This document shows positions 8,906 to 60,441 of a stretch of 64,000 bases of DNA, in pieces (within the stretch, counting starts at the first letter, position 1; each line of letters starts with the position of its first letter). The notes beneath the pieces were generated by a model. It made no database searches and was not told the DNA's origin. It worked only from the letters and a program-made list of their open reading frames with translations. The DNA comes from an uncultured Acidobacteriota bacterium (GTDB lineage: Bacteria; Acidobacteriota; Blastocatellia; Pyrinomonadales; Pyrinomonadaceae). A program made the position numbers and the translations under genes. Location of the stretch: contig CALMYB010000001.1 of assembly GCA_937873515.1 (NCBI GenBank), forward strand, positions 79,904-143,903, given 5' to 3'.

Positions 8906-8910
8906 AACAA

Positions 8911-9459: not shown

Positions 9460-9467
9460 CGTGCCTT

Positions 9468-11539: not shown

Positions 11540-11543
11540 AGAT

Positions 11544-41635: not shown

Positions 41636-42793
41636 TTGATTACCCCCAAAATGCCCAAAAAGAAGGAAAAGCAGAGTATAAAGGTAGCCGGACGACGTTA
41701 TTCAGGTTCCGACGGCAAGGATCCTCTATCGACTGCCCTCGATGACACGGCAAGGTTATTTAATAATGGGTCGCTCTCGCTTGAGGCTCGCAAAGAAGAA
41801 GCGGCGTCCGGGGAAAGATCGCTCTCTCGGGAACTCGACGATGTTTTCATAAATAAGTACATCGAAACATTTGGTGACATAAAAGCTTCCCCCGAGACAA
41901 GCCGCGCAGCGGCTGACGACCAGGCTCTGGCAAAGACAGACAAGCTACGGGACCAGTCGTTTGAAAAAACTGAGATATATAAGGGCTTCTTTCGGGAATA
42001 CGATATTTTCAACTACGAATATCACGCTCTCGTCCGTCCGGACGGCGTTATGGCCGGGTTCAGCATTTCGCTGCCGGAGCGGAAAAAGGTCTATAGCAAG
42101 AAAGAGCGTGGATCACTGGATTCGCTGCTCCCGCAGCTCCATCAGTCGTTAAGCGACAGCCTTGTCGACATCACCAAAACGTCCGATCATGCCGTCCTGA
42201 TCGAAACCGTGAGCAAGATGACGAGGCCCGCCTTGATCGTTGATCAAAATGCGCGGGTGCGGACGGCCAACGCTCGTGCGGCTAGGATTTTGGAGGCCAA
42301 TGACGGACTCTCGGTCGATAAGAATGGCTCTTTGGCGGCGAGAACCCCGGAAGCGACCAGAGATCTTCATGCGATCCTCGAGACAGTTCATTCCGGACAC
42401 AGAGACGGAACCCAGGACGCAGCGGCCATATGTCTCCTGCGGAGGCCATCCGGCAATCGGCATCTCCAACTCTTGGCATCGCCAATTGGAGACAATTCGG
42501 GAATCGAAGGAGAATTCTTAGCTCTCGTTTTTTTGTGCGACCCCGAAAGATCAGTAAGGGTTAGCGAAGCGGTCCTTCGAAAGCTTTACGAGCTTACACC
42601 CGCCGAGGCTGCGGTCGCTTCCCGGCTTGCTAAGGGCGAATCGGTCGAACAGATCTGCGACCATCTCACGATCACTGCCAATACATGTCGCACCCATTTG
42701 AAGCGCATCTATTCCAAGACCTCAACTTCCAGACAAGGCGAACTCATTTCGCTCATCCTTACCAGCATCGCAACGATTCCCGAGCCATCCTAG
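41636..42793 (+). CDS. LuxR/NarL-family HTH transcriptional regulator without receiver domain
   Basis: C-terminal LTPAEAAVASRLAKGESVEQICDHLTITANTCRTHLKRIYSKTSTSRQGELISLI (GerE/LuxR HTH). The ~300-aa N-terminal region is unassigned. Start is TTG 41636 or ATG 41651. Confidence 0.75.
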   Translation: MITPKMPKKKEKQSIKVAGRRYSGSDGKDPLSTALDDTARLFNNGSLSLEARKEEAASGERSLSRELDDVFINKYIETFGDIKASPETSRAAADDQALAKTDKLRDQSFEKTEIYKGFFREYDIFNYEYHALVRPDGVMAGFSISLPERKKVYSKKERGSLDSLLPQLHQSLSDSLVDITKTSDHAVLIETVSKMTRPALIVDQNARVRTANARAARILEANDGLSVDKNGSLAARTPEATRDLHAILETVHSGHRDGTQDAAAICLLRRPSGNRHLQLLASPIGDNSGIEGEFLALVFLCDPERSVRVSEAVLRKLYELTPAEAAVASRLAKGESVEQICDHLTITANTCRTHLKRIYSKTSTSRQGELISLILTSIATIPEPS

Positions 42794-43501: not shown

Positions 43502-46500
43502 TTGCTGTCAGAAGACACAGGGGCGAAGCAGCAGCCCATACCACCGACCGCTGCCGCTCTCCCATGCACGCCGACAGGGATAACACTCCCGGTACCTAGC
43601 ACATATCCAACTATCCAGGCCGCGATCAATGCCGCAAACCCGGCGGGTGGTGACAAGATCCAGGTGGCGGCAAATACCTACACTGAACAGCTGTCCATAA
43701 CCAAATGCGTCACAATCGAAGGCGCAGGCATCGGTTCAACGATCATCCAGGCTCCTGCGACGTTGGCTCCAAGCGGTGTTCTCGGCTTCACCGGAAATTC
43801 GATAGTCGAGGTGAGGAGTAACTCGTATGTAACTGTCACAGGTGTTACTATCACCGGTCCGCTACCGCTTTTAGCCTATCCTAACAAGACGTTTGGTATC
43901 TTTGTCGCCGAGAATGCCACCCTCGATATGTCAAATTCTCAGGTTACTGCAATTCACACTAGCAGTGGTGTGGACGGCGCCCAGAACGGAACCGGAATAG
44001 GGGTTGGCAGCACAGCGGCGAATACGATCGGCACTATCGTCTTGAACAATGTCACGGTCAATGACTACCAAAAGAACGGTATGCTTGTCGAACGCACTGG
44101 TTCGGTAGCCACAATTGCGAATTCGACCGTAACCGGCATTGGGCCGACGAGTATCATCGCACAGAACGGAATTCAGATAGCAGACGGCGCGACGGGCACG
44201 ATAACAGCTTCGACCATAACACAAAATCTTTACATCATTACGAATCCGCTAAACCCTTGGGCATCATCCGGCGTACTGCCTTGGAATGCCGGGGCAGTGA
44301 CGATCACCGGTTCAACCTTAAATAATAATGATGTCTCCGTTTACACAGGGACAAGCTCTGTTCCCGCTACGCCCGCACCGCTTACGATCACAGGTAATAC
44401 TTTTGACGCTAATACATACAACGCCGTATTTTACGACGCCGAGCACCCGGTAACGATCACCGATAATATTGTAACCAACACCAATTCAGCCTTTGGCGGC
44501 CTTGTTTTTGACGGGCAGACATCGACGATCTCGCGCAACTCATTCACTCTGGCCGCCGGAAGCGGCAGCGCAGGCCTTGGTTTCTACAACTACGACGACT
44601 TGTCGCCGACGACGACGGCAACGATCAACGCTCATTTCAACCGCCTATCGAGCGACAACGCAGGTGGACGCGACGGCATTTATAACGAAACTTCGAGCAA
44701 CGTTAACGCAGAAAATAACTGGTGGGGCTGTAACGCGGGACCCGGGAATACTGGCTGCGACGTCGTTAATGACACAAGCGCAGGCACAACAAACTACAGC
44801 CCTTGGCTGACGCTCACGGGTATAACTGCGTCAGCGCCTACGGTTCAATACAACGGAACATCAAATATCACAGGTGTCAGTCTCTGTATGAATTCGGTTT
44901 CGGCCGATGTTTGTACCCTCACCGACCACATCATCGACGGCCTTGCGTTCGGATATGGAACAGCACCTGGTACAGCGGGATCGGTATCTCCCACAACATC
45001 AACTTTTATGACCGGAGTTGCGAACGCCGGTACGACATTCACCGCGGGCGCCGGTCCATTCGTCGGCGACCAGACCGAAGCCGTCGGAGCGACCTTCGAC
45101 AACCAAACGATCTCGACGAACGTCGTCGTCCACGACAGCACCCCGCCTACGTTGGTCTCGTTTACTGCGGATACGGCTGATCCGCAGAATTCGCTGACGG
45201 TGACATTTACGGCAGTCTTCAGCGAACCGGTAATTAATTTTGACGGTGGTGATTTTGGCACTGCATCCGGAAGCGTTAATTCAGTTACGCAAATAGCTCC
45301 GATGGATGGCACGACCTGGAAGGTTACGGCTACTGCGAATCCGGGATCGACTTCAATGTCGGTCAATCTTCTTAGCGGCGGTATTCAAGACACGGCGGTG
45401 CCCGCAAACAATCTTGGAAGTGGCCAAAATGTTACAGTGACCTTTGCTTCTGCGTCAGGGGAATTCATCGTCGACGAAGCAGGCATTAACTGCCTCGGCA
45501 ACGGCAAACCGATCTTTACTGATATTCCAAGTGCAGCGAGTGCGGCGAGTACGGGATCAACGATACGCGTCTGCCCGGGTACGTATCCGCAAGGCAGTTC
45601 GACGGTATCAATCCCAAGCGGAAAGAACAATGTGACGATCATCAATGCTCAGGCGACAAAACCTGTGGTCAATGTTTCCGGAACGAGTTATGGATTTCAG
45701 ATCGGCGGAAGCGGGGCCACGATCGAAGGTTTCGAAATTCACAAAATCGACAACGTGGACAAGAACGTCATCACAATCCAAGGCACGAACTTCACCGGCC
45801 AGAATCTCGACTTCATTGCTGATACACCATGGTCAGGCGGGCAGGTTTCGCGTGCCTTTGAGGTCTCAAGCACCGGACTTAACATCAATAACAATACGAT
45901 CACCGATTTCCGGCAGCCGGCGTATATAAACGGCGACGGCTCAACAAACCTCGGTACGATCTCGAACAACGTTTCATCTGGTACCAAGGGCTGGGTATTC
46001 GATAATGCGATGGTCACGATGACCGGCAATACGTTTCCCGCGGGCTGCGCAGCATGCGGGTTCAGCGACATTGCGGTCTTCCCAGGTGCTTCGGCTACTG
46101 TCCAGGCATTCTGGGGCGGCACGAACGCTCTTGCTATCAGCAACACGAATGACAACGCGTATCTTGACCTGCAATGGACAGGTGCGGGCGATGACGGGCG
46201 TGCGATTAGCTATGTTGACGATATCGTAACCGCCGGCAACGGCAGGACGGTGGCGGCTGCGCGCAACTCGATCCAGGACGGCATCGACAACACTCTTATC
46301 GGCGGCACCGTTCACATCGAACCGGGCACATTCGTCCAGGAAGCCAACGTAAATCGAACCGTCAAGGTTGAAGGATCGGGAGCCGAAGGCGCAAATCAAT
46401 CGAAGGTGTCGGGACCTATCGGCGGCACGGATAGTGCGACGATTCGTATCACGGCGAACAATGTCGATATCAGCGGACTTCTTATCACCCGCGAAGGCAA

Positions 46501-49500
46501 CAACACGACTGATTGGAATAGCGGTCTGAAGTCCGCCGGGCTTGCGATCCAGGGTCAGGCAACCACAGGTGCGGTCATCCACGACAACAAGTTTGACGGT
46601 AACCGGAACGCTCTTGATATCAACAATTCGAACGGCCACACGATCCGCAATAACGTTATCGACAACAACCGAACCGGAATGATCTTTCGAAATCAGACCG
46701 ACAATTTGAAGGTTGTTGAAAACGCGATCACCAACAACTGGACAGTAGGCGTTCTCTTCCTTGATGCAAGCGGCGGGACGAATTCGCCCGTGCAGACAGC
46801 CGCAAACTCCATTTTTAGCAACAACAACATTAGCGGAAATTGGTACGGTCAGATCGTTGAACGCCAGGCAGGCGGTTCCCTTCCCGCGCCTGGCACGAAT
46901 TTGAAGAACTTCCAGGGCAACTGGTACGGCTCAGCTGCTCCGGTCGTCACGACCGCCAATAGTACGGAACCCGGATATTCGGCACTGATACCGGTCGCCT
47001 ACGGCGGAACCGCAACTGCTCCGGGCGGTCAGCCCGATATCGCAGGTCCGGCTTCCGCGAACTTCCGCTACGATCTGCCATTGACCGTTGGAACTGACAC
47101 TGACGTTGAAACAATCTCAGGCCGCGGAACTTACGGCTTCCAGGGCGCGAATCTCGTTGTCAACAGCGCCGTGACGATCAACGATCCAGATCCTCGTCCG
47201 GCCGGGTGGTTCTTCTGGAACGAAGGGCCGAACGGCTCGCATGGGTTAGAGACTGGGCCGAACGGCAGTCATCTCGGCGCCGGCAGTGCTCGTCTGAGTA
47301 TCGACGTAAACGGTCGCGAGAGTTTTGGAACGGCGGCCTACGGCGGTATTCGACTTCGCGACATCACCAAACTGAAGTTCAAGACGTGGACGACGGGCCC
47401 GGATGCTCCTGTTCTGCAGTTCGATGTGGATAACGATCTCTCTGAAAATACGACCATTCCCGACACGACATATCAAGGCCGTCTTGTATTTCAACCGGCA
47501 GGCACTGTAACGCCGAATACTTGGCAGCAATGGGACATATTTGCCCCCGGAACTCTGGTTTGGGGAAGTGGTTCGGGACCAAATCGACCGTTTTCAAATG
47601 CCTGTCCGCAATCAAACCCATGCACGCTCGCAGCGTTGCTCGCGAATAATACTTTCAAAGATCTGGGTGTAAGGCTTCCCGGCGGCGGCGGAACTCTGCT
47701 CTTCCGTGCAGGCGGTCCATCAAGCACGGATATAACCGAGTTTGTCGACGATTTTGAGGTCGGAATCCAAACCGGAAACACTACCTACGACTTTGAACCC
47801 GATCTCAACACCGCTCCTACCGTGACCTCGATCACACGCGGCGGTCCCGATCCGACAAATGCTGCGAACGTTACGTTCAACGTTGCGTTCAGCGAACCGG
47901 TAACGGGCGTTGATACTACTGACTTTGCTCTCGATACTGCAGGCGTTTCAGGTACGTCGATCTCGAACGTTACAGGGTCGAATGGAAACTACGTCGTTAC
48001 GGTCAATACAGGCTCAGGCAGCGGCACGATCCGCCTCGACGTGAATGCCGGAGCGTCAATCTTCGACATCGCGAACAACCAGTTTGGCAATGCTTACACC
48101 GGGCGTGAAATTTACACGATCGATAGGACGGGGCCGAACTCTACGGTCTCGCCTGTCGCGGATCCTGACACGACGTCGCCTGTTGACTTCACGGTCAGTT
48201 TTGGCGAGACCGTTACCGGATTCGATGCCGCGGATGTAACGATCGGCGGTTCAGCCAATCCAACGGGATTCACGATCGATGGCTCTTACACCGTTCACGT
48301 TACCGGTATGAATCAGTCCGGCACGGTGACCGTCAGCATCAACAACGCAGGCGTTACCGACTCACTCGGCAATGCGGGTACCGGAGCATCGTCTAGCTCT
48401 GCACAATTCAACCAGCAGACAACACCGAACGTCCAGACGCCTTTGGCACCGACCTGGGCGTACTATGACGACAATACGAACGCCGTAATCTCCGGCTATG
48501 ACTATGTTTATGGGCCGAACGGCGGGCCGCTGCCGGCGGGCAGTGCTCGCTTGCAGAGCGGAGCCGGCGATCTCAAAGGTCTGTTCACGCAAGACTATAA
48601 CAACACGAAGCTCGCTAACATTACGACGCTCAGCTACTCGACCTATGTCCACGGCTCGGCAACGAATGAGCCGACGCTTCAGTTCAACGTGGATTATGAC
48701 CTTACAGACGGCAACACGACCTACCAGGGCCGCGTGGTTTACGTCCCAAGTCAAAACGGCAGCGTCTCGGCTGACACCTGGCAGAATTGGAACGCTTTGA
48801 CAGGCGTATTCTGGTATTCGTCACTTTCGCCAGTAGCAATTGAGTGTACACAAACTGTGCCCTGCACGCTCAGCCAGATGCTCGCGGCTCATCCAAACAT
48901 GGGCATCCATGCTACGGCCGGAGCTATCGGTTTCCGATCCGAGCAGAACAGCAACTCCAACGTTGACAACTTCGTGATCGGCATCAACAGTGCGAACACT
49001 GTGGTCAACTTCGAGCCCGCGGGGGCGATGGTGAGCACGCCTTCGTCACCGAACGGCTGGTTCTATTGGGAGGATGACGATGACCATCTCGTAACGGGAT
49101 ACGATTATGTATTTGGGCCTTTGGGCGGACCGCTTCCGGTGGGAAGCGCCCGCGTCGCGAGCGGAACCACGCCCGGCGATCAGAAGAAGGGGCTCTTTAC
49201 ATTCCAGTATCGCGGTACGCCTCTTGATCAACTGACGACGCTCAAATATTCAACCTATGCCGCTACGGCAGGTGATGTTCCATATTTCCAGATAAGCGTT
49301 GACTTTACGGGTAACGCCAATCCGGGATACCAAGGCCGACTGGTCTATGTCCCGAGTGAGAACGGCACATTTACCGCGAACACTTGGCAGACCTGGGATA
49401 TGTTGGCTTCGACTGCGAAGTTCTACTATTCGTCCGGCACTTACTCGCCAAATGGCGACGGATGTCTAGCAAGTGAAGGCAACGGCGGCTGCACTCTGGC

Positions 49501-52363
49501 CACTATCCTTTCGGCGCACCCGAACGCTCGTGTGATGCCGAATGGTGATCCGGGCCATCCCGATCCGAATAACACTTGGGGTGTGATCGGCGTCCGCACC
49601 GACCCCGGAAAATCCGGCAACGTCGATAACATTATCGTCGGCGTCAATGCCGCGGACACGACCTTTAACTTCGAGCCTGCAGGCGTAGTTGTAAGTACGC
49701 CCGTATCGCCAAAGGGCTGGTTCAGTTGGGACGACACAGCCGAAGTTCCGTGTGACAGCGAGTATGTGACTGGTCCGGCGGGCGGGCCTTTGCCGGTCGG
49801 AAGCGCACATCTTTCGAGCGCGACCTGCAGTGGTTCGGTTACTAGTACCGACAGGAAAGGCTTCTTCACGAAAGCTTTCCAGGGAGCCCGTCTCGATCAG
49901 ATCACGACGCTCAAGTACTCGTCGTACGTCCCAACCGGCACCGGTACGCCGTCGTTCCAGATCGGCGTCGACTTTACCGGTGCCGCCAATCCGACCTACC
50001 AGGGTCGCCTCGTCTATGTTCCGACCGGTGTCAGCTACGGCAGTTGGCAGACTTGGGATCTTATGACTCCTGGTACGAAGTTCTATTACTCGTCAAACAC
50101 GTACTCGCCGAACGGTGACGGTTGCTTGATGAATCAGGGCTCAGGCTGTACTTTGGCCACGATCCTTGCGGCTCACCCGAATGCTCGTGTAATGCCGAAT
50201 GACGACCCGAACCCGCTTGTCCCGGATACTTGGGGCGTTCTCGGCATCCGAATGGACGCGAACGCGAACGCCAACGTAGATAACGTCATCGTCGGGGTTA
50301 ATGGTGCGGTCAACACGTTCGACTTCGAGGCGGCGCCGCCGACGGTCTCGATCGCGGTTAATCCTGGCAATGTGACCGAGGGCAGCAATGTATCGTTCAC
50401 GGTCTCGCTTACGGGCGATACACCGGAACGCACGGTGCCTGTCACGGTGCTTCTAAATACTACAGACGGAACAGCGACGGGCAGCGGCACAGACTACACG
50501 TCTGCCGTGAATCAAGTTGTGACATTTGCACCGGGTGTTTCGTCACAGACGGTCACCGTCGCTACTGCGACCGACAACATCGCGGAAGGTGCCGAAACGT
50601 TTACGGCAACGCTTTCAAATGCTGTAAACGCCGGTATCGGCACCGCATCCGCGACCGGCACGATCAACGATGGAGCAGGCTACATCGCCATCGGCGGCCA
50701 CGTTATGGCTTACAACAACGGCGGCCCGCAGACTGGTATCGCCGGCGTCACAATGACTCTGACCGGAACTAGCAACGGTTCGCCGATCACTCTGACGACC
50801 CCAACGGACGTTAACGGCAACTACAACTTCAACACGGGACTTTCGACAACTGGGCAATATTCGGTGGCTCCGACCGTGGCAGCACCCTATGTGTACGATC
50901 CGGAGTCGATCTACTACATCAATCCCGCAAGCAGTGTCACGAACGCAAACTTCGTTGGATACAATAATGACAATCCGCGACATGTAACAATTGGAAATGT
51001 CACTCAAAGCCAAGTTGGGGCAAATGTAGTTGTTCCAGTGACGTTCAACGCTTTGGGAACAGAACAAGGCGGCTCATTCGTACTCAGTTTCGACACGTCA
51101 AAACTTCAGTATGTCTCGGCGTCGGCACCGTCTGGCACAAATCTGGTAGTCTCTGCTGGTCCGGGACCGAAGACAGTATCGTTTAGTAAACTTGGTCCGC
51201 CCTACACGGGCTCGGTCACGCTGAACTTCACCTTCAGTGCAACGCCGGGCAATGCACTATCGACTCCCGTAGCCTTCGCAAATCCCAAGAGAATCTCCAA
51301 TACCCAAGGTGTTGGTGTCCCCGCGGTTTGGACTGATGGCTCTGTTATTTTTGCCCAAGGCAACGAGGGTGATATTTCCGACGGCACCACGGGCGGATTT
51401 ACGGACGGGTACGTCGATTCCCCGGACGTTAGCAGGGTCGTAAGTCTTATAGTAGGTGACGCAGTTCCGAATCCAAACGTAAATGAATTCCAACGCGCGG
51501 ATGCAGGGCCTTACCTCCCAAGTCGCGGCGACGGTTGTATCGACGCTCTCGATCTGACGGCAATCCTGCTCTATTCAGTCGGCGATCTACCGACGACACC
51601 AGCGGCTGGCCCGGTAGCACCTCCGTGCGGTTCACCACTCCAGGCGAAGGATGCCGCAAACCGAATAACCGGCGGTACAGTTGTTCGATTTGTCGGGTCA
51701 CGGGCGGCTCCGGGCAGCAACATTGACGTACAGGTAGAACTCTCGGCTCAAGGTATCGAAAATGGCACAACATTCACCTTGAACTATAATTCGACAGTAC
51801 TGGATGAATTTCCGACGATCACGCTTGGCTCGGGAGTTCCCAATGGTGCCTTCTTCTTTACGAACTCGATGTCGCATCCCGGAAAAACGGCCGTAACGTT
51901 CAGCCTGCAATCGGGCCAGACAATGCCTGTCGGAGATACAGTTATTCTCAACTTCCAGTATCACGTTAAGTCGTCGGCCGCTGTCGGCACCTACCCTGTG
52001 GTGTTCACCAGCGACTTAGCCCGCCAGCGGGTAAGTAATACTCAGGCACAGAACGTCCCTGCGACTTGGGAAGATGGTGCCGTTGAGATAATGCTTGCAC
52101 CGACGGCGGCGACGTCTTCGGTGGGCGGCCAGGTGCGGACGGCGGATGGTCGTGGCATTGGCAATACGGTCGTAACCCTGACGGGCACGGACGGAAGCGT
52201 CCGCAGGGCGTTGACGAACCAGATGGGCTTCTACCGCATCGACGACGTACCGACGGGTGCGACGTATGTACTCGGCGCGACGTCGAAGCGCTACACCTTC
52301 GACAGTCGGGTGGTCACGGTAGGCGATAACATCACGGATGCGGATATCACTCCGCGTGAGTAA
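43502..52363 (+). CDS. giant secreted surface protein 1
   Basis: 2953-codon open frame. Domain order is beta-helix x2, Ig-like domains, 4 unassigned modules, Calx-beta, CarboxypepD_reg, cohesin, dockerin-like, cohesin, CarboxypepD_reg CTD. Supporting motifs: YPTIQAAINAANP..G and NWWGCNAGPG of beta-helix proteins; Calx-beta (DGTATGSGTDYT...TV..ATDNIAEGAETF); cohesin-like V.V.V....G......F.L.(Y/F)(D/N)...L blocks. The listed TTG start is only the first start-type codon (TTG) after the in-frame TAA. The biological start is probably ATG 43226. Confidence 0.8.
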   Translation: MLSEDTGAKQQPIPPTAAALPCTPTGITLPVPSTYPTIQAAINAANPAGGDKIQVAANTYTEQLSITKCVTIEGAGIGSTIIQAPATLAPSGVLGFTGNSIVEVRSNSYVTVTGVTITGPLPLLAYPNKTFGIFVAENATLDMSNSQVTAIHTSSGVDGAQNGTGIGVGSTAANTIGTIVLNNVTVNDYQKNGMLVERTGSVATIANSTVTGIGPTSIIAQNGIQIADGATGTITASTITQNLYIITNPLNPWASSGVLPWNAGAVTITGSTLNNNDVSVYTGTSSVPATPAPLTITGNTFDANTYNAVFYDAEHPVTITDNIVTNTNSAFGGLVFDGQTSTISRNSFTLAAGSGSAGLGFYNYDDLSPTTTATINAHFNRLSSDNAGGRDGIYNETSSNVNAENNWWGCNAGPGNTGCDVVNDTSAGTTNYSPWLTLTGITASAPTVQYNGTSNITGVSLCMNSVSADVCTLTDHIIDGLAFGYGTAPGTAGSVSPTTSTFMTGVANAGTTFTAGAGPFVGDQTEAVGATFDNQTISTNVVVHDSTPPTLVSFTADTADPQNSLTVTFTAVFSEPVINFDGGDFGTASGSVNSVTQIAPMDGTTWKVTATANPGSTSMSVNLLSGGIQDTAVPANNLGSGQNVTVTFASASGEFIVDEAGINCLGNGKPIFTDIPSAASAASTGSTIRVCPGTYPQGSSTVSIPSGKNNVTIINAQATKPVVNVSGTSYGFQIGGSGATIEGFEIHKIDNVDKNVITIQGTNFTGQNLDFIADTPWSGGQVSRAFEVSSTGLNINNNTITDFRQPAYINGDGSTNLGTISNNVSSGTKGWVFDNAMVTMTGNTFPAGCAACGFSDIAVFPGASATVQAFWGGTNALAISNTNDNAYLDLQWTGAGDDGRAISYVDDIVTAGNGRTVAAARNSIQDGIDNTLIGGTVHIEPGTFVQEANVNRTVKVEGSGAEGANQSKVSGPIGGTDSATIRITANNVDISGLLITREGNNTTDWNSGLKSAGLAIQGQATTGAVIHDNKFDGNRNALDINNSNGHTIRNNVIDNNRTGMIFRNQTDNLKVVENAITNNWTVGVLFLDASGGTNSPVQTAANSIFSNNNISGNWYGQIVERQAGGSLPAPGTNLKNFQGNWYGSAAPVVTTANSTEPGYSALIPVAYGGTATAPGGQPDIAGPASANFRYDLPLTVGTDTDVETISGRGTYGFQGANLVVNSAVTINDPDPRPAGWFFWNEGPNGSHGLETGPNGSHLGAGSARLSIDVNGRESFGTAAYGGIRLRDITKLKFKTWTTGPDAPVLQFDVDNDLSENTTIPDTTYQGRLVFQPAGTVTPNTWQQWDIFAPGTLVWGSGSGPNRPFSNACPQSNPCTLAALLANNTFKDLGVRLPGGGGTLLFRAGGPSSTDITEFVDDFEVGIQTGNTTYDFEPDLNTAPTVTSITRGGPDPTNAANVTFNVAFSEPVTGVDTTDFALDTAGVSGTSISNVTGSNGNYVVTVNTGSGSGTIRLDVNAGASIFDIANNQFGNAYTGREIYTIDRTGPNSTVSPVADPDTTSPVDFTVSFGETVTGFDAADVTIGGSANPTGFTIDGSYTVHVTGMNQSGTVTVSINNAGVTDSLGNAGTGASSSSAQFNQQTTPNVQTPLAPTWAYYDDNTNAVISGYDYVYGPNGGPLPAGSARLQSGAGDLKGLFTQDYNNTKLANITTLSYSTYVHGSATNEPTLQFNVDYDLTDGNTTYQGRVVYVPSQNGSVSADTWQNWNALTGVFWYSSLSPVAIECTQTVPCTLSQMLAAHPNMGIHATAGAIGFRSEQNSNSNVDNFVIGINSANTVVNFEPAGAMVSTPSSPNGWFYWEDDDDHLVTGYDYVFGPLGGPLPVGSARVASGTTPGDQKKGLFTFQYRGTPLDQLTTLKYSTYAATAGDVPYFQISVDFTGNANPGYQGRLVYVPSENGTFTANTWQTWDMLASTAKFYYSSGTYSPNGDGCLASEGNGGCTLATILSAHPNARVMPNGDPGHPDPNNTWGVIGVRTDPGKSGNVDNIIVGVNAADTTFNFEPAGVVVSTPVSPKGWFSWDDTAEVPCDSEYVTGPAGGPLPVGSAHLSSATCSGSVTSTDRKGFFTKAFQGARLDQITTLKYSSYVPTGTGTPSFQIGVDFTGAANPTYQGRLVYVPTGVSYGSWQTWDLMTPGTKFYYSSNTYSPNGDGCLMNQGSGCTLATILAAHPNARVMPNDDPNPLVPDTWGVLGIRMDANANANVDNVIVGVNGAVNTFDFEAAPPTVSIAVNPGNVTEGSNVSFTVSLTGDTPERTVPVTVLLNTTDGTATGSGTDYTSAVNQVVTFAPGVSSQTVTVATATDNIAEGAETFTATLSNAVNAGIGTASATGTINDGAGYIAIGGHVMAYNNGGPQTGIAGVTMTLTGTSNGSPITLTTPTDVNGNYNFNTGLSTTGQYSVAPTVAAPYVYDPESIYYINPASSVTNANFVGYNNDNPRHVTIGNVTQSQVGANVVVPVTFNALGTEQGGSFVLSFDTSKLQYVSASAPSGTNLVVSAGPGPKTVSFSKLGPPYTGSVTLNFTFSATPGNALSTPVAFANPKRISNTQGVGVPAVWTDGSVIFAQGNEGDISDGTTGGFTDGYVDSPDVSRVVSLIVGDAVPNPNVNEFQRADAGPYLPSRGDGCIDALDLTAILLYSVGDLPTTPAAGPVAPPCGSPLQAKDAANRITGGTVVRFVGSRAAPGSNIDVQVELSAQGIENGTTFTLNYNSTVLDEFPTITLGSGVPNGAFFFTNSMSHPGKTAVTFSLQSGQTMPVGDTVILNFQYHVKSSAAVGTYPVVFTSDLARQRVSNTQAQNVPATWEDGAVEIMLAPTAATSSVGGQVRTADGRGIGNTVVTLTGTDGSVRRALTNQMGFYRIDDVPTGATYVLGATSKRYTFDSRVVTVGDNITDADITPRE
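47201..50329 (+). repeat. four copies of a ~190-210-aa protein module inside giant gene 1
   Basis: Copies lie at about 47201-47800, 48448-49018, 49049-49678 and 49708-50329. Two Ig-like domains separate copies 1 and 2. Shared landmarks: GWF.W.., Y(V).GP.GGPLP.GSA(R/H), TTL.YS(T/S)Y, FQ..VD(F/Y), YQGR(L/V)VYVP, TWQ.W(D/N), CTL...LAAHPN, NVDN.(I/V)(I/V)G(I/V)N....(N/D)FE. Confidence 0.8.
50975..52095 (+). other. cohesin / dockerin-like / cohesin cassette of giant protein 1
   Basis: Cohesin-like blocks at about 50975-51355 and 51671-52095. Dockerin-like duplicated segment at 51362-51590 (TDGYVDSPDVSRVVSLIVG and GDGCIDALDLTAILLYSVG, each fitting DG.(V/I)(D/N)..D(L/V)..(L/I/V)....). Confidence 0.6.
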
Positions 52364-52892: not shown

Positions 52893-55800
52893 ATGTTTCT
52901 GAAAAGGAATCCCTTCGTTTTTGTATCAGCTCTTCGATATTTTGGAAATATCGCATCCGGTCTTGAACTGCGTTTGAAGATCTCAGCCGCACTTGTCGCC
53001 TTGGGCATCGCCGCCGGCCTTGGCTGGATACAGCCGACGTTTGCAAATTCAGTTGTCGCCCCTGTTGAGGCGAGCTTCTCGCTTTCGGGTATTTCTGCCT
53101 ACATTTGGTCATTCTTCTCGCACGACGGTCGACGACGGATCCCGACTCCGCGTCCTGCCCGAGACATTGCATCCTTTGGCAGTCGGGAGAGCCTTCCCCA
53201 GACTTCTTCTGCCGCTCCTTGTTCTCCTTCCGGCGTAACCCTGAATGTTCCGGGAACGTATCCGACCATCCAGGCGGCAATTAACGCGGCCAACCCCTCC
53301 GGCGGCGATACGATCGCAGTTGCCGCAGGCAGCTATACTGAGCAGATATCGGCAGGAAAGTGCGTATCGATCGTCGGCTCGGGAGTCAGCAGTACGACGA
53401 TATTTGCACCCGCGACCATGGTTGATAGTACAGTACCCGGCGGCTCGGCCAGGGCGATCGTCGAAGCACGGGCGAACGCATATGTCACCGTCAAAGACCT
53501 ATCGATCTCCGGCCCGGTCACGTTTTCTCCAACGAGTGGAACCTTTGGCGTCTTCGTGGCGGAATCGGCGACCTTGAACATGCGCAATGTTCGCGTCACG
53601 ACTATACAGCAGTCTTCCGGAATTAACTCTGCCCAAGACGGACAAGGAATTGTTGCAGGTGATACGACCTTCGGCACTGCGGGCTCCCTCGATCTTGATG
53701 GGGTTACGATCGATGGTTATCAGGAGAATGGCATACTCGTAGGGGGCGCCGGCTCTTCCGCAACCATCGCGAATACAACGGTAACCGGCACGGGACCGAC
53801 CAGCTTGATAGCACAGAGCGGGATCCAGATCTACGGAGGAGCGTCCGGGGTTATCTCTTCCTCGACCGTAAACGATAATCTGTACTCATTGAATTCAGGA
53901 GCCGCTACAGGAATTCTCACTGCGGATGCGGGAGCTGTATCGGTTTCGGGCAGTGCATTCAGCGGAAATAGCTACGCGATCTATCAATACAATTCGGCTC
54001 TCCCGCTTACCCCTTCAAACTTTTCAGCGACAGCCTGCACGTTCACGAATAATCCCGGAGCAGGCATCGTTTATTCAGCGGCCGCAAGCCCGACGATCAC
54101 AAATAACTTCATCTCCGGGAGCAATATCGGCATCGCCGGATTTGTTGCTGACAACCAAACGTCAACGGTGAAGGGCAACTCGATCACTAACGCGACGGGA
54201 GCCAACAGCGTTGCGATCTTTTTCAACGACTTCAGCAGTTCCGTCAACACAACGTTAGCGACGGTCAATGCGAACTTTAACCGACTCTCGAGCAACAACA
54301 CCGGCGGCCTAGCGGGCCTTCAAAACGACTCTGCCAGTTCGGTCAATGCTGAAAATAATTGGTGGGGATGTAATGCCGGCCCGGGCGCTACCGGGTGCGA
54401 CATCGTCGCCGGTACGGGCCCCGGTGTCGTCGACAGTGATCCGTGGTTAACTCTCAGTGGGATAACTGCTTCGCCTGTAAGTCTGAATTATTCGCAGACG
54501 TCAACGATCAGCGGTGTGAACCTGTGCACAAACTCGGCCGCAGCAACCGTGTGCAGCCCTGCCGATCACACTCCTGATAGCCTGAGCGTTGCCTACTCCA
54601 CGTCGCCGGGCACGAACGGCTCGGTTGCGCCGGCAAGCGGTGCGTTCACAACCGGTGTCGCGGCGGGTACAACGTTCACCGCCACGAGCGGGCCGATTGT
54701 CGGCAACCAGATCGAGAACGTCGGTGCTATTTTCGACAATCAAACCATCGCAACAGCAATTACAATACTCGATCCATCAGGCGGAATCTCCATCAGTGGA
54801 CGGATCACCGCCTACACTGGCGGTGCCGGGATAGACGGAGTTACTGTAACCTTAACTGGAACTAGCAGCGGCAGCCCCGTCAACCTTTCGACCACTACCG
54901 CGTCCGGTGGGAACTTCGCGTTCAGCGGCGGCCTTTTCGCGAACGGATCATACTCGATCATTCCGTCATGCCCGAGTGACCCGCAATGTTCTGCCTTTAC
55001 CTTTGATGCTTCCCAGCGAGACTATCTCAACCCGCCGAGCAGTATAACGACTGCGGATTTTGTTGGCTATAACGGAGATAATCCAAGAGATGTGGTGATC
55101 AAGAACACAACTCAAACGCCTGTTCTTCCGGGACAGCCGGCCGGAGTGGGCGCCAATATTACCGTGCCGATTCAGATCGCAAGTCAAGGTACCGAGAATG
55201 CAATGGCATTTACGCTGGTCTATGACTCGAGTAAGCTGCAGTTCTTATCGGCCGCATGCGACCCTTCTCTGGCATCGTTGGGATGCGGCATTACTCAGCC
55301 CGGGCCGGGCGGCTCGCCGACGACCTTGACGATGGCCTTACAGCCCGGAGCTGTTCTGCCGGCATCAGCCACACCGGCAACGGCCTTGTTGGTCACCTTC
55401 AAGGCGACCCCGGGCACGTCGACGTCGACACCGCTTGCCTTCAATACGATCCCGAGTTCCAAATCCGTCAGCAACAATAACGGCTACGCAGTACCTGCGG
55501 ACTGGATAGATGGTGTGGTTTCTTTCGCTGGCGGTTTTGAAGGCGATGTCGCTGGAGGACAACCAGCAAGCTCTGGGATACCGAATGGCCAGGTCACGTC
55601 GGGAGATATCACGAGGATCCTAAATCTGGTTTCTCACAATACAACGCCAAACCCAAACGTAAACGAGTATCAGCGTGCAGACTGTGCCCCGATCGGAACC
55701 TTTGGAAATGGCCTGCTCACCTCGGGTGATGTCACCGTAGCCTTGCGTTACGCAAACGGTGACCTGGTTGGTATCCACAACCCGGCAGCAGGAGCCTCTA

Positions 55801-56576
55801 CCGGGCTTAGGCAAACACAGGTTCCTCGCGATCGGGACTCTAGATCGCCGTCACTTTTACTCGCACCGGGAGATGTCAGCGTTCTCGGAGCCCTTGCGGC
55901 CCCAGGCAGCACTGTCGCAATTGATATCGAGCTTGAGGGCCAAGGTATCGAAGCAGGATTTGGATTCACACTTGAGTTCGACCCAAATGTGCTGAGTCTG
56001 AGCACTCCCGGCGGGGTTTCTGAAGGGGCTGACGTCTCAACGTATCCTCATATATTCTCACCTAACATATCGCAGGCTTCGAGCGGAAGAATCGGTGTTG
56101 TTTACAATCTCACGACCTTTGGTGCGAGTATGACCCCGGCGGGACCAAAGAGGATTGTTCACGTGACGTTTTTAGTAAACTCTGCTGCCGTCGTTGGAAG
56201 CACTACACCGATCTCGTTCTCAGACGCGGTTTCCATTAGAGAGGTCAACGACGTTGACGGAAATTCCTTGACTCCAAATTGGGGTGATGGGGTCATCGAG
56301 ATCAGTCTCTCCCCGACGGCGGCTGAATCTTCAGTTGGCGGGCAAGTAAGGACGAATGATGGTCGAGGAATTGGAAATACTGTCGTTACCTTGACTGGTG
56401 TTGACGGCGTAGTCCGCAGAGCGTTAACGAACTCCTTTGGATATTATCGTATAGACAATGTACCGACAGGAGCGACGTACGCCTTAGGAGCTACTTCGAA
56501 GCGGTATGCTTTTGATACTCGGGTAATCACAGTGGGCGACAATATCACTGACGCAGACCTCACACCGCGCGAATGA
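52893..56576 (+). CDS. giant secreted surface protein 2
   Basis: 1227 aa with an intact signal peptide. Collinear with the N-terminal ~480 aa and C-terminal ~750 aa of protein 1. Domain order is beta-helix, CarboxypepD_reg, cohesin, dockerin-like, cohesin, CarboxypepD_reg CTD. It lacks the central ~1700 aa of protein 1. Confidence 0.85.
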   Translation: MFLKRNPFVFVSALRYFGNIASGLELRLKISAALVALGIAAGLGWIQPTFANSVVAPVEASFSLSGISAYIWSFFSHDGRRRIPTPRPARDIASFGSRESLPQTSSAAPCSPSGVTLNVPGTYPTIQAAINAANPSGGDTIAVAAGSYTEQISAGKCVSIVGSGVSSTTIFAPATMVDSTVPGGSARAIVEARANAYVTVKDLSISGPVTFSPTSGTFGVFVAESATLNMRNVRVTTIQQSSGINSAQDGQGIVAGDTTFGTAGSLDLDGVTIDGYQENGILVGGAGSSATIANTTVTGTGPTSLIAQSGIQIYGGASGVISSSTVNDNLYSLNSGAATGILTADAGAVSVSGSAFSGNSYAIYQYNSALPLTPSNFSATACTFTNNPGAGIVYSAAASPTITNNFISGSNIGIAGFVADNQTSTVKGNSITNATGANSVAIFFNDFSSSVNTTLATVNANFNRLSSNNTGGLAGLQNDSASSVNAENNWWGCNAGPGATGCDIVAGTGPGVVDSDPWLTLSGITASPVSLNYSQTSTISGVNLCTNSAAATVCSPADHTPDSLSVAYSTSPGTNGSVAPASGAFTTGVAAGTTFTATSGPIVGNQIENVGAIFDNQTIATAITILDPSGGISISGRITAYTGGAGIDGVTVTLTGTSSGSPVNLSTTTASGGNFAFSGGLFANGSYSIIPSCPSDPQCSAFTFDASQRDYLNPPSSITTADFVGYNGDNPRDVVIKNTTQTPVLPGQPAGVGANITVPIQIASQGTENAMAFTLVYDSSKLQFLSAACDPSLASLGCGITQPGPGGSPTTLTMALQPGAVLPASATPATALLVTFKATPGTSTSTPLAFNTIPSSKSVSNNNGYAVPADWIDGVVSFAGGFEGDVAGGQPASSGIPNGQVTSGDITRILNLVSHNTTPNPNVNEYQRADCAPIGTFGNGLLTSGDVTVALRYANGDLVGIHNPAAGASTGLRQTQVPRDRDSRSPSLLLAPGDVSVLGALAAPGSTVAIDIELEGQGIEAGFGFTLEFDPNVLSLSTPGGVSEGADVSTYPHIFSPNISQASSGRIGVVYNLTTFGASMTPAGPKRIVHVTFLVNSAAVVGSTTPISFSDAVSIREVNDVDGNSLTPNWGDGVIEISLSPTAAESSVGGQVRTNDGRGIGNTVVTLTGVDGVVRRALTNSFGYYRIDNVPTGATYALGATSKRYAFDTRVITVGDNITDADLTPRE
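55083..56310 (+). other. cohesin / dockerin-like / cohesin cassette of giant protein 2
   Basis: Cohesin-like blocks at about 55083-55535 and 55869-56310. Dockerin-like segments are PNGQVTSGDITRILNLVS and GNGLLTSGDVTVALRYANG, joined by the conserved linker PNPNVNEYQRAD. Confidence 0.6.
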
Positions 56577-56639: not shown

Positions 56640-57371
56640 TCAGTTCCCGTTCAGTTCCTCTCCGTTGGTCGAAGGGCGATAAGCCGGATGATGGGCAGGA
56701 CTCCCCGGCGCTTCGACAAGCCCGTTCTCGTAGGCATAGATCACCAGGTTAAGCCTGTCGTCAACACCGATCTTTCCGTAGATCGAACTTAGATGGTGCC
56801 GAATCGTCGCCTCACTGACGGCGAGTTCACGGGCGAGTTCCTTGTTCTTTCGACCGGCCGCCAAAAGCTTTATTACCTCAAGTTCTCTAGGAGTCAAAGA
56901 TTCCGCGTCGGTTGCCCTAGAATGATTTGCCGAAGTCTCGCTTGGGTGTTTCTCCCTCTCAAGGATCTTGTGAAGGACGGTTTGATTCAACCAGGTTTCG
57001 CCGGCATAGGTCTGGCGGATAGCCTCGACCAAGAGTTTTGCACTCTGCTCGATCTGAACGATGCCGACAGCACCCATTTTCAGAGCACGAGCCTGCGAGT
57101 CCAGATCCGCTCCGGCAACGAGGATAACAACCCGAAGCGCCGGATTCTCGTTCAATAGATGCCCAACGACATCAACCTGATCTTCTGCGGTCAAATAGAC
57201 GACAGCAACATCGGCATTTAAGACGCTGGATGTACTGCCTTTTGTGTGGTCGAAAGTGTATAGCCCCGTGACAGAGAGGCCCTCATTCGACTCGATAAGA
57301 TGCCTAAGGCTCTCCTGCACGATCTCGTACTTACCGACAAGGAGGACACCGATATGTTTACTTCTACTCAT
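56640..57371 (-). CDS. LuxR/NarL-family regulator with pseudo-receiver domain
   Basis: C-terminal HTH LTPRELEVIKLLAAGRKNKELARELAVSEATIRHHLSSIYGKI. Aligned by eye to NarL, the acidic pair is GK, the phospho-Asp position is Tyr (VAVVYLTAE), and the conserved Thr/Ser and Lys positions are also substituted. Confidence 0.75.
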   Translation of the reverse strand: MSRSKHIGVLLVGKYEIVQESLRHLIESNEGLSVTGLYTFDHTKGSTSSVLNADVAVVYLTAEDQVDVVGHLLNENPALRVVILVAGADLDSQARALKMGAVGIVQIEQSAKLLVEAIRQTYAGETWLNQTVLHKILEREKHPSETSANHSRATDAESLTPRELEVIKLLAAGRKNKELARELAVSEATIRHHLSSIYGKIGVDDRLNLVIYAYENGLVEAPGSPAHHPAYRPSTNGEELNGN

Positions 57372-58240: not shown

Positions 58241-58963
58241 ATGACATCCCCAATCATCAAGCTGGTCATGATCGGAGAATATTCGATCTTTAGGGGAGCA
58301 TTGCGAATGCTCCTCGAAACTGACCCCAAGTTTCGCGTTATAGGCGAAGCTAAGAATCCTGAATCTGCACTGCAAATTATCGATGACGAGAGGCCGGACC
58401 TTATCTTGGTTGACCTTCCCGACAACGATGTTGCCAAACTGCTTCCTCTTCTCAAAGACGCGGAACTGCCCGTCTTGCTGCTCATCGATGAACTTGACGT
58501 TGAGATCTATAAGCAATGCCTGAGAATCGGCATCCGCGGACTCGTCCTAAAGCAGGAGCGCGCGGACACTCTGTTCAAGGCAATTGAAAAGATCCATGCA
58601 GGTGAGATCTGGTTCGATCGGATCGTAATGGGTGACACCATTCGTCATTTGATCGGAGAAATGCAAATGCTTCACTCCCTTCCCCTCAGTCCGGTCGCGT
58701 CCGCGCTGACCGATCGGGAACGCGAAGTGATAGGTCTGATCTGCAAAGGAATGAAGAATAAGGAGATCGCAGAATCTCTCTTCATTTCTGAAACAACGGT
58801 CCGGCATCACCTGACCTCGATCTTCAACAAACTGGATATAACCAGCCGTCTCGAACTCGTTGTTTATGCGTTCGAGAACAACCTGGTAAAGAAACTGAAC
58901 GAAAGCAGCTTCTATCCAATGAACGGCTACGCCAGGAACACGACGGATTCGTTGGGAGCCTGA
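58241..58963 (+). CDS. LuxR/NarL-family response regulator with atypical receiver
   Basis: HTH LTDREREVIGLICKGMKNKEIAESLFISETTVRHHLTSIFNKL. The receiver keeps the Asp (LILVDLP) and Lys (LVLKQ), but the acidic pair is GE and the Thr/Ser position is Ile. Paralogue of 56640..57371. Confidence 0.75.
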   Translation: MTSPIIKLVMIGEYSIFRGALRMLLETDPKFRVIGEAKNPESALQIIDDERPDLILVDLPDNDVAKLLPLLKDAELPVLLLIDELDVEIYKQCLRIGIRGLVLKQERADTLFKAIEKIHAGEIWFDRIVMGDTIRHLIGEMQMLHSLPLSPVASALTDREREVIGLICKGMKNKEIAESLFISETTVRHHLTSIFNKLDITSRLELVVYAFENNLVKKLNESSFYPMNGYARNTTDSLGA

Positions 58964-59132: not shown

Positions 59133-59420
59133 ATGCCGACTGATAAGAATGATAAGAAGCTGAAAAAGCTTCAACGCAGGAAGAAGAAAAAAAATGCCTT
59201 GATCATGTGCCATGACGGAAAGGAGTACTGGACGACCCAGACCGAATTTTGGCAATGGGTGCGCAGCTGTGTAGTACGAAAGGTGAGCGATGCTCCCCTT
59301 AGAGGCCAGTTCATCCGTCAGAACGAAGAGTACAACGTTGTTATCGGCAATACGGTTCTAAACCTAAAGTGCCCGAACCATCTAAGCGAGGCACTGTATG
59401 CCCGTAGAAAAGCATATTGA
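59133..59420 (+). CDS. hypothetical small basic protein
   Basis: 95-aa ORF with a Lys/Arg-rich N-terminus (KKLKKLQRRKKKKN) and Trp/Cys-containing core. No family recognised. Confidence 0.3.
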   Translation: MPTDKNDKKLKKLQRRKKKKNALIMCHDGKEYWTTQTEFWQWVRSCVVRKVSDAPLRGQFIRQNEEYNVVIGNTVLNLKCPNHLSEALYARRKAY

Positions 59421-59442
59421 CCAGAAAACCTGCTGGACTTCG

Positions 59443-60441
59443 ATGAGGGGAATCATTTCGAATGAGTTGAGCTTTGCGTTATCGATCCTCTTCTGCGTGT
59501 GTGTACCGCAAATGACGTTGGGCCAGTCGCCGAATGCCACCCCACAACCTAATGGTCCTGTTGCGGCGATGAACTATAGGATCGGGCCGGGCGACGTGAT
59601 CGACGTACTCGTAACAAAGAACGAGGCGTTGTCTCGTACCGGTGTTCGCGTAAATAGCCAAGGCACAATCCAGTTGCCGATGCTCGATAACGATATTTCG
59701 GCAGCCTGTCTCACTGAAGGGCAATTAGCAGAACGGGTTGAGGAAGCTTACAGGAAATATCTTGTTTCGCCATCGGTAAATGTTTCTGTTCGTGAATTCA
59801 ATTCAAACCCGGTCGCCGTCATTGGGGCGGTAAACTCACCCGGACGATTCCAAATGCAGCGTCCGATCCGACTTGCCGAACTCCTCACGTTCGTCAACGG
59901 GCCGAGCACAAGCGCCGGCAGAACGGTCGAGATAATTCGCGACCCATCACATCCGTTCTGCGATGGACCTAAACTTGAAAGGCCGATCGCCACTGGAGAG
60001 GAACTCTTGTCGTTTCGGCTGGATGATGTGTTCCGCGGCGGGGAACAAACCAACCCGCTCATAAAAGCAGGCGATGTCGTTCGGATTGCTGAGGCCGATA
60101 AGGTTAATGCCTATATTCAAGGAAACATTCGTAGCGCACTCGCGATAAATCTTGCGGATCCGGTTACCCTCACGCAGGCAATCGCAATGGCCGGAGGGAC
60201 AACCTCCGGGGCACAACTCGACAAAGTTTCCATCAGGCGACAGATAGCCGGGTCGATAAACCGCAATGAAATGGTCGTTAACGTCAAAGAGATCAATCAA
60301 GGCAAGCGCGACGACGTGCTATTAGAACCGAACGACATTATCAACGTACCCGGTCCAACTGGAAGCAAAAAGATCCTTGGTGATATTTTCCGTTCGATCA
60401 TTCCGACGATAACCCGGTTTCCGGTGTCAGTTATCCCATAG
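59443..60441 (+). CDS. polysaccharide export protein (Wza family; Poly_export + SLBB)
   Basis: Signal-like LSFALSILFCVCVPQMTLGQ, YRIGPGDVIDV, RPIRLAELLTFVNG, KAGDVVRI, NDIINV. Alternative start at 59398. Confidence 0.85.
   Translation: MRGIISNELSFALSILFCVCVPQMTLGQSPNATPQPNGPVAAMNYRIGPGDVIDVLVTKNEALSRTGVRVNSQGTIQLPMLDNDISAACLTEGQLAERVEEAYRKYLVSPSVNVSVREFNSNPVAVIGAVNSPGRFQMQRPIRLAELLTFVNGPSTSAGRTVEIIRDPSHPFCDGPKLERPIATGEELLSFRLDDVFRGGEQTNPLIKAGDVVRIAEADKVNAYIQGNIRSALAINLADPVTLTQAIAMAGGTTSGAQLDKVSIRRQIAGSINRNEMVVNVKEINQGKRDDVLLEPNDIINVPGPTGSKKILGDIFRSIIPTITRFPVSVIP

Follow-up and report, generated by a model that had tools for sequence, protein, structure and literature searches.

Cohesin–dockerin recognition is the best-known high-affinity protein assembly system of bacteria and has become a mainstay of synthetic biology, and its mechanism is known almost wholly from cellulolytic Bacillota. 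What, then, could the two partner folds be doing side by side in one and the same polypeptide of an acidobacterium? This question is raised by a 64,000-nucleotide stretch of DNA from an uncultured member of the Pyrinomonadaceae (Acidobacteriota; contig CALMYB010000001.1), in the following called the window, in which two neighbouring genes on the forward strand encode giant secreted proteins, here termed P1 and P2. A preliminary description of this locus had assigned to both paralogues a cohesin-like domain, a duplicated dockerin-like segment and a second cohesin-like domain, and these identities hold when they are examined with hidden Markov models (HMMs), by hhalign comparison and at the level of the fold. 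Judged from profile searches, the resulting cohesin–dockerin–cohesin (CDC) cassette is an ancient and fixed C-terminal unit that is carried by hundreds of large multi-domain secreted proteins in Blastocatellia and Verrucomicrobiota. With regard to its function, we see about an even chance that it is a self-complementary assembly module, whose dockerin would be packed on its own cohesins and which would form the base for a passenger.

Identity of the modules in P1 and P2

P1 and P2 share 52% identity over their N-terminal 537 and 45% over their C-terminal 613 amino acids (BLASTP), the middle of P1 containing about 1,840 residues more than that of P2, and on the strength of these alignments they are true paralogues. 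The C-terminal part of both proteins runs in the order CarboxypepD_reg-like domain, cohesin A, a duplicated helical module of about 90 amino acids (aa), cohesin B and CarboxypepD_reg domain. That the same set of modules occurs in two giant paralogues, at 50975..52095 (P1 residues 2492–2865) and at 55083..56310 (P2 residues 731–1139), had been correctly stated at the outset, and the strings quoted at that time were all recovered, NGQVTSGDITRIL and NGLLTSGDVTVAL in P2, DGYVDSPDVSRVV and DGCIDALDLTAIL in P1 and PNPNVNE(F/Y)QRAD in both.

When the modules were scanned singly, three of the four cohesins reached the gathering cut-off of Pfam Cohesin (PF00963, 24.1 bits), cohesin A of P2 remaining below it (Table 1), and cohesin A of P1 scored 73.9 bits against a position-specific cohesin A HMM. 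Pfam scans of full-length P1 and P2 reported neither Cohesin nor Dockerin, and because such scans report no Cohesin, automated annotation of proteins of this length will miss the cassette. We reject the possibility that this absence is real; it is a filter effect, as the excised segments of 373 aa (P1) and 409 aa (P2) match Pfam Cohesin with about 62 bits (E 1e-16). A phmmer search of the P1 segment against the PDB sequences returned one weak cohesin match only, cohesin B matching the cohesin 4ums_A, and dockerins surfaced when the family profile was used.

For structural information, the 373-aa P1 cassette was modelled with AlphaFold2 on a 50-sequence alignment, with a mean predicted local distance difference test score (pLDDT) of 88.6 and a predicted template modelling score (pTM) of 0.77. 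Cohesin A is all-beta in this model, with block-mean pLDDT values of 76–95 over residues 1–120, and the Pro-rich linker behind the dockerin-like module falls below 50 at residues 222–229. The best Foldseek matches of the model in the PDB are cohesins, among them a dyad of ScaA cohesins from A. cellulolyticus (3l8q, E 7e-14) and single cohesins with template modelling (TM) scores of 0.80–0.83 (6kgd_A 0.82, 2xdh 0.80, the CipA cohesin 1aoh_A 0.80); for cohesin B, too, Foldseek finds cohesins at TM ~0.8. The P1 model shows the nine-stranded jelly-roll, and the flanking modules are genuine cohesin-fold domains.

Pfam thus recognises the cohesins in three of four cases; it does not recognise the dockerin. 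Against Dockerin_1 (PF00404, gathering cut-off 22.9 bits), the P1 module reached 13.4 bits over 13 residues and the P2 module gave no match at all, and of six other family modules three scored 13.5–18.9 bits and three remained without a match. Standard annotation overlooks the cassette on both counts, Dockerin_1 never being at threshold and Cohesin being lost on the full-length scan. Profile comparison points to dockerins all the same. A family profile (A3, 16 aligned modules) run against all PDB sequences gave seven matches at E <=10, namely six dockerins (2ccl_B, 4fl4_A, 1ohz_B, 5nrm_B, 4uyq_B and 4uyp_B) and calmodulin; individually these matches are not significant (E 0.15–1.2), and the alignments with 2ccl_B, 4fl4_A, 1ohz_B and 4uyq_B cover both repeats in register. 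When five canonical dockerin sequences of type I, taken from PDB profile-search outputs, were aligned and compared with the same profile by hhalign, the match had a probability of 92.9% and an E-value of 3.7e-7 over 55 columns. The two halves of the family module alignment matched each other with a probability of 99.3% (E 5e-20), as befits a tandem duplication. The P2 module matches the family HMM, a result that is partly circular because P2 is contained in the seed alignment.

An AlphaFold model of the module alone (pLDDT 81.7, pTM 0.77) has helices at residues 26–37, 48–52 and 68–78, corresponding to loop-helix, short helix and loop-helix, and each of the 23 PDB chains to which Foldseek matched it is a dockerin, with 4fl4_G at the top (probability 0.99, TM 0.76, root-mean-square deviation 2.7 Å) and with E-values of only 0.09–7, the domain being small. 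By profile comparison and predicted structure, the segment between the cohesins is thus homologous, though divergent, to type I dockerins despite the failure of the Pfam model.

The cassette family and the packing of its modules

Searched exhaustively with the profile, a set of 1.84 billion representative proteins yielded 1,870 protein clusters at E <=1e-3, of which 1,585 remained at E <=1e-10; the recurrence of the module is far beyond chance. Word-indexed homologue searches returned 5 and 14 proteins only. The 185,579 species genomes surveyed (one genome per species) contain 335 loci, and the best 80 of these are labelled overwhelmingly as Blastocatellia (Pyrinomonadaceae, Chloracidobacterium) and Verrucomicrobiota (Limisphaerales, Pedosphaera), other labels being confined to a few metagenome-assembled genomes (MAGs). 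NCBIfam contains no model for the cassette.

Architectures were counted for the best 150 representatives with 158 modules, cohesins being called with a purpose-built cohesin HMM. Cohesins flank 109 of the 158 modules on both sides, another 21 have a downstream cohesin only, and wherever there is room downstream a cohesin follows in 138 of 139 cases. Pfam Cohesin was found in 32 of 50 family members, whose passengers comprise Ig/I-set, Laminin_G_3, TIG, FG-GAP and similar domains; the cassette is placed C-terminally on large proteins rich in immunoglobulin (Ig)-like, lectin or beta-helix domains. At the loci, the order is cohesin, dockerin, cohesin, sometimes dockerin and cohesin only, and is followed by a terminal domain of 84–90 aa, which corresponds to a tail of 88 aa in P1 and P2. 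The geometry, measured over 174 unique cassettes, is narrow: the end of cohesin A and the conserved Glu are separated by a median of 3 residues, the last helix and cohesin B by a median of 30 (23–44), and the length of the whole cassette in the two phyla is 378 ± 9 aa. In 172 of 173 cassettes, the two cohesins behave as positional orthologues of distinct type, A in front of the dockerin and B behind it, and mean pairwise identity amounts to 54% for the dockerin module, 37% for cohesin A and 33% for cohesin B. P1 and P2 are members of this family by the order of the modules, by E(F/Y)QRAD between the repeats and by the near-C-terminal position, and both are divergent.

How might three such modules work together? 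We favour a cassette that is self-complementary and differs in this respect from a system of scaffoldin plus cargo. The dockerin, fused to cohesin A almost without a linker and connected to cohesin B by a tether of about 30 residues, would pack on its own cohesins and thereby form one compact three-module body, either in cis within one chain, which we consider the favoured case, or by reciprocal swapping between two chains. On the cell surface or within the extracellular matrix, this body would be the base by which a long passenger (beta-helix, Ig-like, Calx-beta or unknown repeats) is held or oligomerised. We prefer this reading because the modules co-occur obligately in one chain, because the junction between cohesin A and dockerin is almost linkerless and the tether lengths are narrow, because the pTM of 0.77 for the three-module model exceeds the value of about 0.4–0.55 for freely jointed modules (an expectation that is our own estimate), and because the dockerin helices are modelled with higher confidence in context (pLDDT 91–95) than in the lone module (81.7).

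Several points weigh against it. The contact between dockerin and cohesin is something that we infer from pTM alone. The 150 top representatives are those closest to a profile that was itself built from CDC proteins, and the architecture count may be biased for that reason. The dockerin is conserved above the cohesins, which would fit an invariant partner, be it the dockerin itself, a metal, a glycan or a conserved machine, better than co-evolution with variable cohesins of the same cassette. Four short metagenomic proteins or fragments (P0017 with 319 aa, P0022, P0023 and P0024) contain two to three dockerin-like modules back to back without an intervening cohesin, and the module can therefore exist outside the cassette. 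Finally, an in-frame TAA lies behind the signal peptide of P1, which may be a pseudogene.

The same modules could also act in trans. It is possible, if rather unlikely, that the dockerin binds a cohesin of another chain and that head-to-tail polymers, branched networks or hetero-complexes of P1 and P2 result, which would serve as a surface layer or matrix. All three modules are real, the two dockerin repeats are near-symmetric as in dual-binding dockerins, and the paralogues have different residues where type I dockerins encode their specificity, positions 10/11 and 17/18 reading SP/VS and AL/LL in P1 vs SG/LN and SG/LR in P2. The geometry speaks a different language: assembling scaffoldins have variable linkers, and the fixed junction of 3 residues between cohesin A and the dockerin as well as the narrow linker lengths are unlike theirs, while the pTM of the three-module model predicts a closed compact unit.

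Calcium loops, the conserved motif and the lone cysteine

For a closer look at the loops, 254 family modules were aligned and the numbering was anchored on the invariant Asp at position 12. Neither P1 nor P2 contains the complete canonical 12-residue loop D1-x-N/D3-x-D/N5-G6-x-I/V8-N/D9-x-x-D12. Throughout the family, position 4 is Gly (99–100%), position 5 Asp or Asn (95–97%), position 6 Gly, position 8 Val, Ile or Leu and position 9 mostly Thr or Ser. P1 and P2 have kept position 5 (Asp in P1, Asn in P2), Gly at position 6, Val, Ile or Leu at position 8 and Asp at position 12, and position 9 is occupied by Asp in P1 and by Thr in P2; both loops of P1, the more acidic of the two proteins, have Asp at positions 5, 9 and 12. 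Further upstream stands an invariant Asp (that of EGD in the first repeat and of QRAD in the second), the presumed counterpart of loop position 1, and it is followed by Gly4 after 6–9 residues (mode 6 and 7 in the family, 6 and 8 in P1, 9 and 7 in P2) vs 2 in the canonical loop. Both repeats of P1 and P2 alike carry this insertion of 4–7 residues between loop positions 1–2 and 3–4, and it is because both calcium loops are lengthened in this way that the Dockerin_1 model misses the module. The consensus of the family repeat reads D-(V/C)-(A/S)-P-R-x-x-(x)-G-(D/N)-G-x-(V/I/L)-T-x-x-D-W-V-Q-x-G-R-(F/Y)-x-A-G-L-D.

These data refine the earlier picture in three respects. The F-hand pattern that had been proposed for the dockerin-like halves fits from loop position 5 onward and fails upstream of it. 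Asn and Thr in P2 had been taken for replacements of calcium ligands, a view that we cannot share, as Asn or Asp at position 5 and Thr or Ser at position 9 are ordinary EF-hand ligands and, in the alignment of 254 modules, the norm of the family and therefore no peculiarity of P2. PNPNVNE(F/Y)QRAD is indeed conserved in both proteins, but it had been regarded as a linker, and a mere spacer it is not: PNPNVNEFQRAD includes the residues at which conservation within the family peaks (E, F/Y, Q, R, A and D at 90–100%), and the region comprises the short connecting helix and the start of loop 2, such that the motif opens the second repeat.

P1, P2 and their closest relatives, those at the loci L002–L004 and the protein P0001, constitute a divergent subclade without the Pro-Arg of the loop insertion and without the DWVQxGR helix motif. 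In modules that lack the loop Arg/Lys, two or all three of the positions 3, 5 and 9 are acidic more often than in others (Fisher's exact test, p 0.02 for repeat 1 and 0.004 for repeat 2, uncorrected for phylogeny), which gives a hint, drawn from residue statistics, that the conserved loop Arg may compensate for lost calcium ligands.

The disrupted loop positions 1–3, together with the Dockerin_1 threshold that is never reached, bring up the question whether cohesin and dockerin bind each other here at all. The module could serve as an EF-hand-like spacer or hinge that binds calcium or is stabilised by Arg, set between two generic beta-sandwich domains of a stalk and stiffening the base of an adhesin, and the names of the modules would then denote ancestry only. 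We regard this as unlikely. It would agree with the occurrence of the cohesin-like sandwiches among many other Ig-like stalk domains and with the high conservation of the small module, which fits purely structural or metal-binding constraints. The near-obligate downstream cohesin (138/139) is hard to explain with generic spacers, and so is the conservation of cohesins A and B as distinct positional types. Moreover, Arg at helix position 18, a position that contacts the cohesin in type I dockerins, is kept in 84% (repeat 1) and 94% (repeat 2) of the family modules.

A further feature of the family is the Cys of the RADCAP motif, which 147 of 173 cassettes possess (module alignment, column 52; 55680..55682 in P2, QRADCAP). 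Cohesin A is free of Cys in 142 cassettes and cohesin B in 132, which leaves the RADCAP Cys as the lone conserved Cys of the secreted module. It is replaced by Ala in the P1-type lineage, where a new pair of Cys residues (GDGC... and PPCGSP) occurs. An inter-domain disulfide was considered as a sign of contact in cis and rejected, the cohesins being mostly Cys-free and the Cys of the family being unpaired.

Could the cassette be a C-terminal sorting or anchoring tag, the cohesin(s) or the EFQRADCAPR face of which binds a conserved component of the envelope or the secretion apparatus and thus tethers the protein to the outer membrane? A tag would explain a strictly C-terminal cassette followed by a conserved terminal domain of 84–90 aa, a dockerin-like module that is conserved above the cohesins across two phyla, and a lone RADCAP Cys beside mostly Cys-free cohesins, which might link covalently to a partner. 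We nevertheless consider it very unlikely: outside the closest relatives no conserved partner gene lies beside the cassette genes, Pfam and NCBIfam detect no known sorting domain (C-terminal domain of the type IX secretion system, PEP-CTERM), and precisely the lone Cys has been lost from modules of the P1 type.

Returning to the self-complementary cassette, the loop and Cys data can be combined with it in a more elaborate form, to which we give little credence as a whole. A remodelled dockerin with two-fold symmetry would be clamped by both flanking cohesins at once, each on a face of its own, within the chain or in a swapped dimer, with the guanidinium group of the Pro-Arg pair in place of calcium, so that most members would be independent of calcium, and with the RADCAP Cys locking oligomers covalently. 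The subclade of P1 and P2 would have lost the Arg and shifted to more canonical features, that is, acidic loop ligands in P1 and a more canonical-looking helix motif in both proteins.

Genomic setting and known cohesin–dockerin systems

Coordinates of all features are collected in Table 1. The two giant genes are preceded by those for glutamine synthetase (GlnA) and a MiaB-like enzyme and followed by those for a response regulator, a Wza-like and a Wzc-like protein, with LuxR-type regulators on the flanks. The bracketing of the two genes by regulators, with polysaccharide export genes behind them, suggests a link to the production of extracellular matrix. The closest locus was found in the Acidobacteria MAG SZAS-14 (L002; 78% identity), which also has the tandem pair of P1 and P2 (64..7389 and 7919..11590). 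At the syntenic locus of two further Pyrinomonadaceae MAGs, which is marked by the genes for GlnA, the MiaB-like enzyme, LuxR, response regulator, Wza and Wzc, there is a P1-like gene only (L003, 388..7404) or a P2-like gene only (L004, 3784..7482), and P2-type dockerin helices are nearly unchanged between the window and its syntenic relatives. The linkage of LuxR, response regulator, Wza and Wzc genes to cassette genes is confined to the closest relatives, and an explanation by operon partners was rejected for that reason.

For assembly between chains, this setting cuts both ways. The tandem pair kept in the closest relative and the polysaccharide export genes downstream would suit such an assembly, but 78 of 80 loci carry a single cassette gene, and because the syntenic relatives possess only one or the other paralogue, cross-linking of paralogues is not a general function.

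Table 1. Features of the P1/P2 locus, positions counted from the first nucleotide of the window
Feature	Position	Strand	Remarks
75-aa open reading frame, likely true N-terminus of P1 with signal-peptide-like segment	43226..43453	+	same frame as P1; in-frame TAA at 43451-43453
P1, giant paralogue	43502..52363	+	2953 aa from first listed start; stop-to-stop frame opens at 43454
P1 CarboxypepD_reg-like beta-sandwich upstream of cassette	50681..50971	+	homologous to P2 region with weak CarbopepD_reg_2 match; no Pfam match of its own
P1 cohesin A	50975..51358	+	Pfam Cohesin 30.6 bits, E 4.4e-7
P1 dockerin-like duplicated module	51359..51616	+	loop-helix 1 GDISDGTTGGFTDGYVDSPDVSRVVSLIVG, short helix NEFQRAD, loop-helix 2 DAGPYLPSRGDGCIDALDLTAILLYSVG
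P1 Pro-rich linker between dockerin-like module and cohesin B	51617..51661	+	second Cys of the P1-type pair (PPCGSP)
P1 cohesin B	51662..52096	+	Pfam Cohesin 44.5 bits, E 2.4e-11
P1 C-terminal CarboxypepD_reg-like domain	52112..52360	+	tail of ~88 aa past cohesin B; homologous to P2 tail matching PF13620
P2, shorter paralogue	52893..56576	+	1227 aa; signal-peptide-like hydrophobic segment at N-terminus
P2 cohesin A	55083..55532	+	Pfam Cohesin 20.8 bits, E 4.9e-4, under the 24.1 cut-off; family cohesin HMM 131.8 bits
P2 dockerin-like duplicated module	55533..55796	+	loop-helix 1 GDVAGGQPASSGIPNGQVTSGDITRILNLVSH, short helix NEYQRAD, loop-helix 2 DCAPIGTFGNGLLTSGDVTVALRYANG
P2 cohesin B	55854..56309	+	Pfam Cohesin 48.0 bits, E 2e-12
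P2 C-terminal CarboxypepD_reg domain	56331..56573	+	PF13620, 43.4 bits for whole protein; best stretch residues 1147-1216
Three LuxR/GerE-type regulators (one a response regulator), Wza-like (Poly_export/SLBB) and Wzc-like (Wzz/GNVR/AAA_31) genes	41636..42793, 56640..57371 (-), 58241..58963, 59398..60441, 60453..62924

P1 as listed begins without a signal peptide because an in-frame TAA cuts off the homologue of the P2 N-terminus. The 75-aa reading frame in front of it (MFLKY...LTLCLTFGAVWIQPALASS...FWSFF*) parallels the N-terminus of P2 (MFLKR...GIAAGLGWIQPTFANS...IWSFFSHD), and the nucleotides around the stop are ttc ttc taa agc. The TAA could be a nonsense mutation, which would make P1 a pseudogene, a sequencing error or a site of read-through. 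Besides its cassette, P1 has the Pfam domains Beta_helix, NosD, Big_12 and Calx-beta, and PF13620 is found in its close relative P0001. Residues ~1230–2275 of P1 (~47189..50330) contain four copies of a domain of ~180–220 aa, three of them in tandem, with a YQGR(L/V)V(F/Y)(Q/V)P motif at 47471, 48722, 49328 and 49997 that is followed by WQxW and a Cys pair. These internal repeats have no match in Pfam or among PDB sequences except for the interspersed Ig domain Big_12, and the same searches with the N-terminal domain shared by P1 and P2 and with the P1 repeats gave nothing besides Beta_helix, NosD and Big_12.

The modules had been suspected to serve a non-cellulosomal purpose, and this view is borne out. 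Pfam detects no glycoside hydrolase and no carbohydrate-binding module (CBM) in P1, in P2 or in 50 family members, nor Dockerin_1 in these 50; the two right-handed beta-helix regions of P1 could be carbohydrate-active. Within the window, cohesin or dockerin-like modules are restricted to P1 and P2, and proteins with only cohesins or only a dockerin are absent. The combination that makes up a cellulosome, dockerin-bearing enzymes and a multi-cohesin scaffoldin with a CBM, was found neither in P1 and P2 nor in the window nor in the 50 family members.

What emerges is a family from Acidobacteriota and Verrucomicrobiota that uses both folds in a fixed CDC arrangement, with remodelled calcium loops, on giant surface proteins that are not enzymes. 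Should the self-complementary reading be correct, this would be a second and structurally distinct use of the pair, one that is self-complementary where the known one consists of scaffold plus cargo; it would offer a possible source of new orthogonal or calcium-independent binding modules and a way to learn how soil phyla that are abundant yet poorly cultured construct their surface or matrix. The clamped-dockerin cassette, if it exists as outlined, would represent a previously unrecognised class of surface-protein assembly modules in diderm soil and freshwater bacteria. The literature that we searched describes neither a fixed CDC cassette nor the EFQRADCAPR motif, nor the spread of the cassette in Blastocatellia and Verrucomicrobiota; a mention is possible in Peer et al. 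2009 (FEMS Microbiol Lett 291:1), a survey that reportedly covers non-cellulosomal cohesin and dockerin modules.

Among the known systems, the cassette resembles the adaptor and primary scaffoldins (ScaA/ScaB of A. cellulolyticus and those of A. clariflavus and P. cellulosolvens) in that cohesins and a dockerin are present in one chain. In scaffoldins, however, the dockerin is terminal and of another specificity type than the cohesins of the same protein, the linkers are long and variable and the number of cohesins varies (PMC11557425), whereas order, stoichiometry and length (378 ± 9 aa) of the CDC cassette are fixed. Use of the folds outside cellulose degradation is shared with the non-cellulosomal cohesin of Archaeoglobus fulgidus (2XDH) and the cohesin-like modules of Clostridium perfringens (2JH2/2W1N), 2XDH and 2JH2 being among the best structural matches of the P1 cassette model. 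The double-dockerin module of C. thermocellum Clo1313_0689 (8X39), one of the Foldseek matches of the dockerin-like module modelled alone, likewise has a non-standard arrangement of dockerin repeats, but P1 and P2 have a single dockerin module that is embedded between cohesins. With the type I pair of clostridial cellulosomes (C. thermocellum CipA cohesin and Xyn10B dockerin, 1OHZ/2CCL; 4FL4), the cassette has in common the cohesin jelly-roll (TM ~0.8), the duplicated loop-helix pair of the same topology (TM 0.76 to 4fl4_G; 92.9% by hhalign), loop positions 5, 6, 8 and 12 and the aromatic residue at helix position 19. It departs from that pair in a dockerin that fails the Dockerin_1 cut-off and has 4–7 extra residues per loop, containing a conserved Pro-Arg in most family members though not in P1 and P2, in the position of this dockerin between two cohesins almost without a linker and not at the terminus of the protein, in the lack of an attached carbohydrate-active enzyme, and in its hosts, which are diderm Acidobacteriota and Verrucomicrobiota and not cellulolytic Bacillota.

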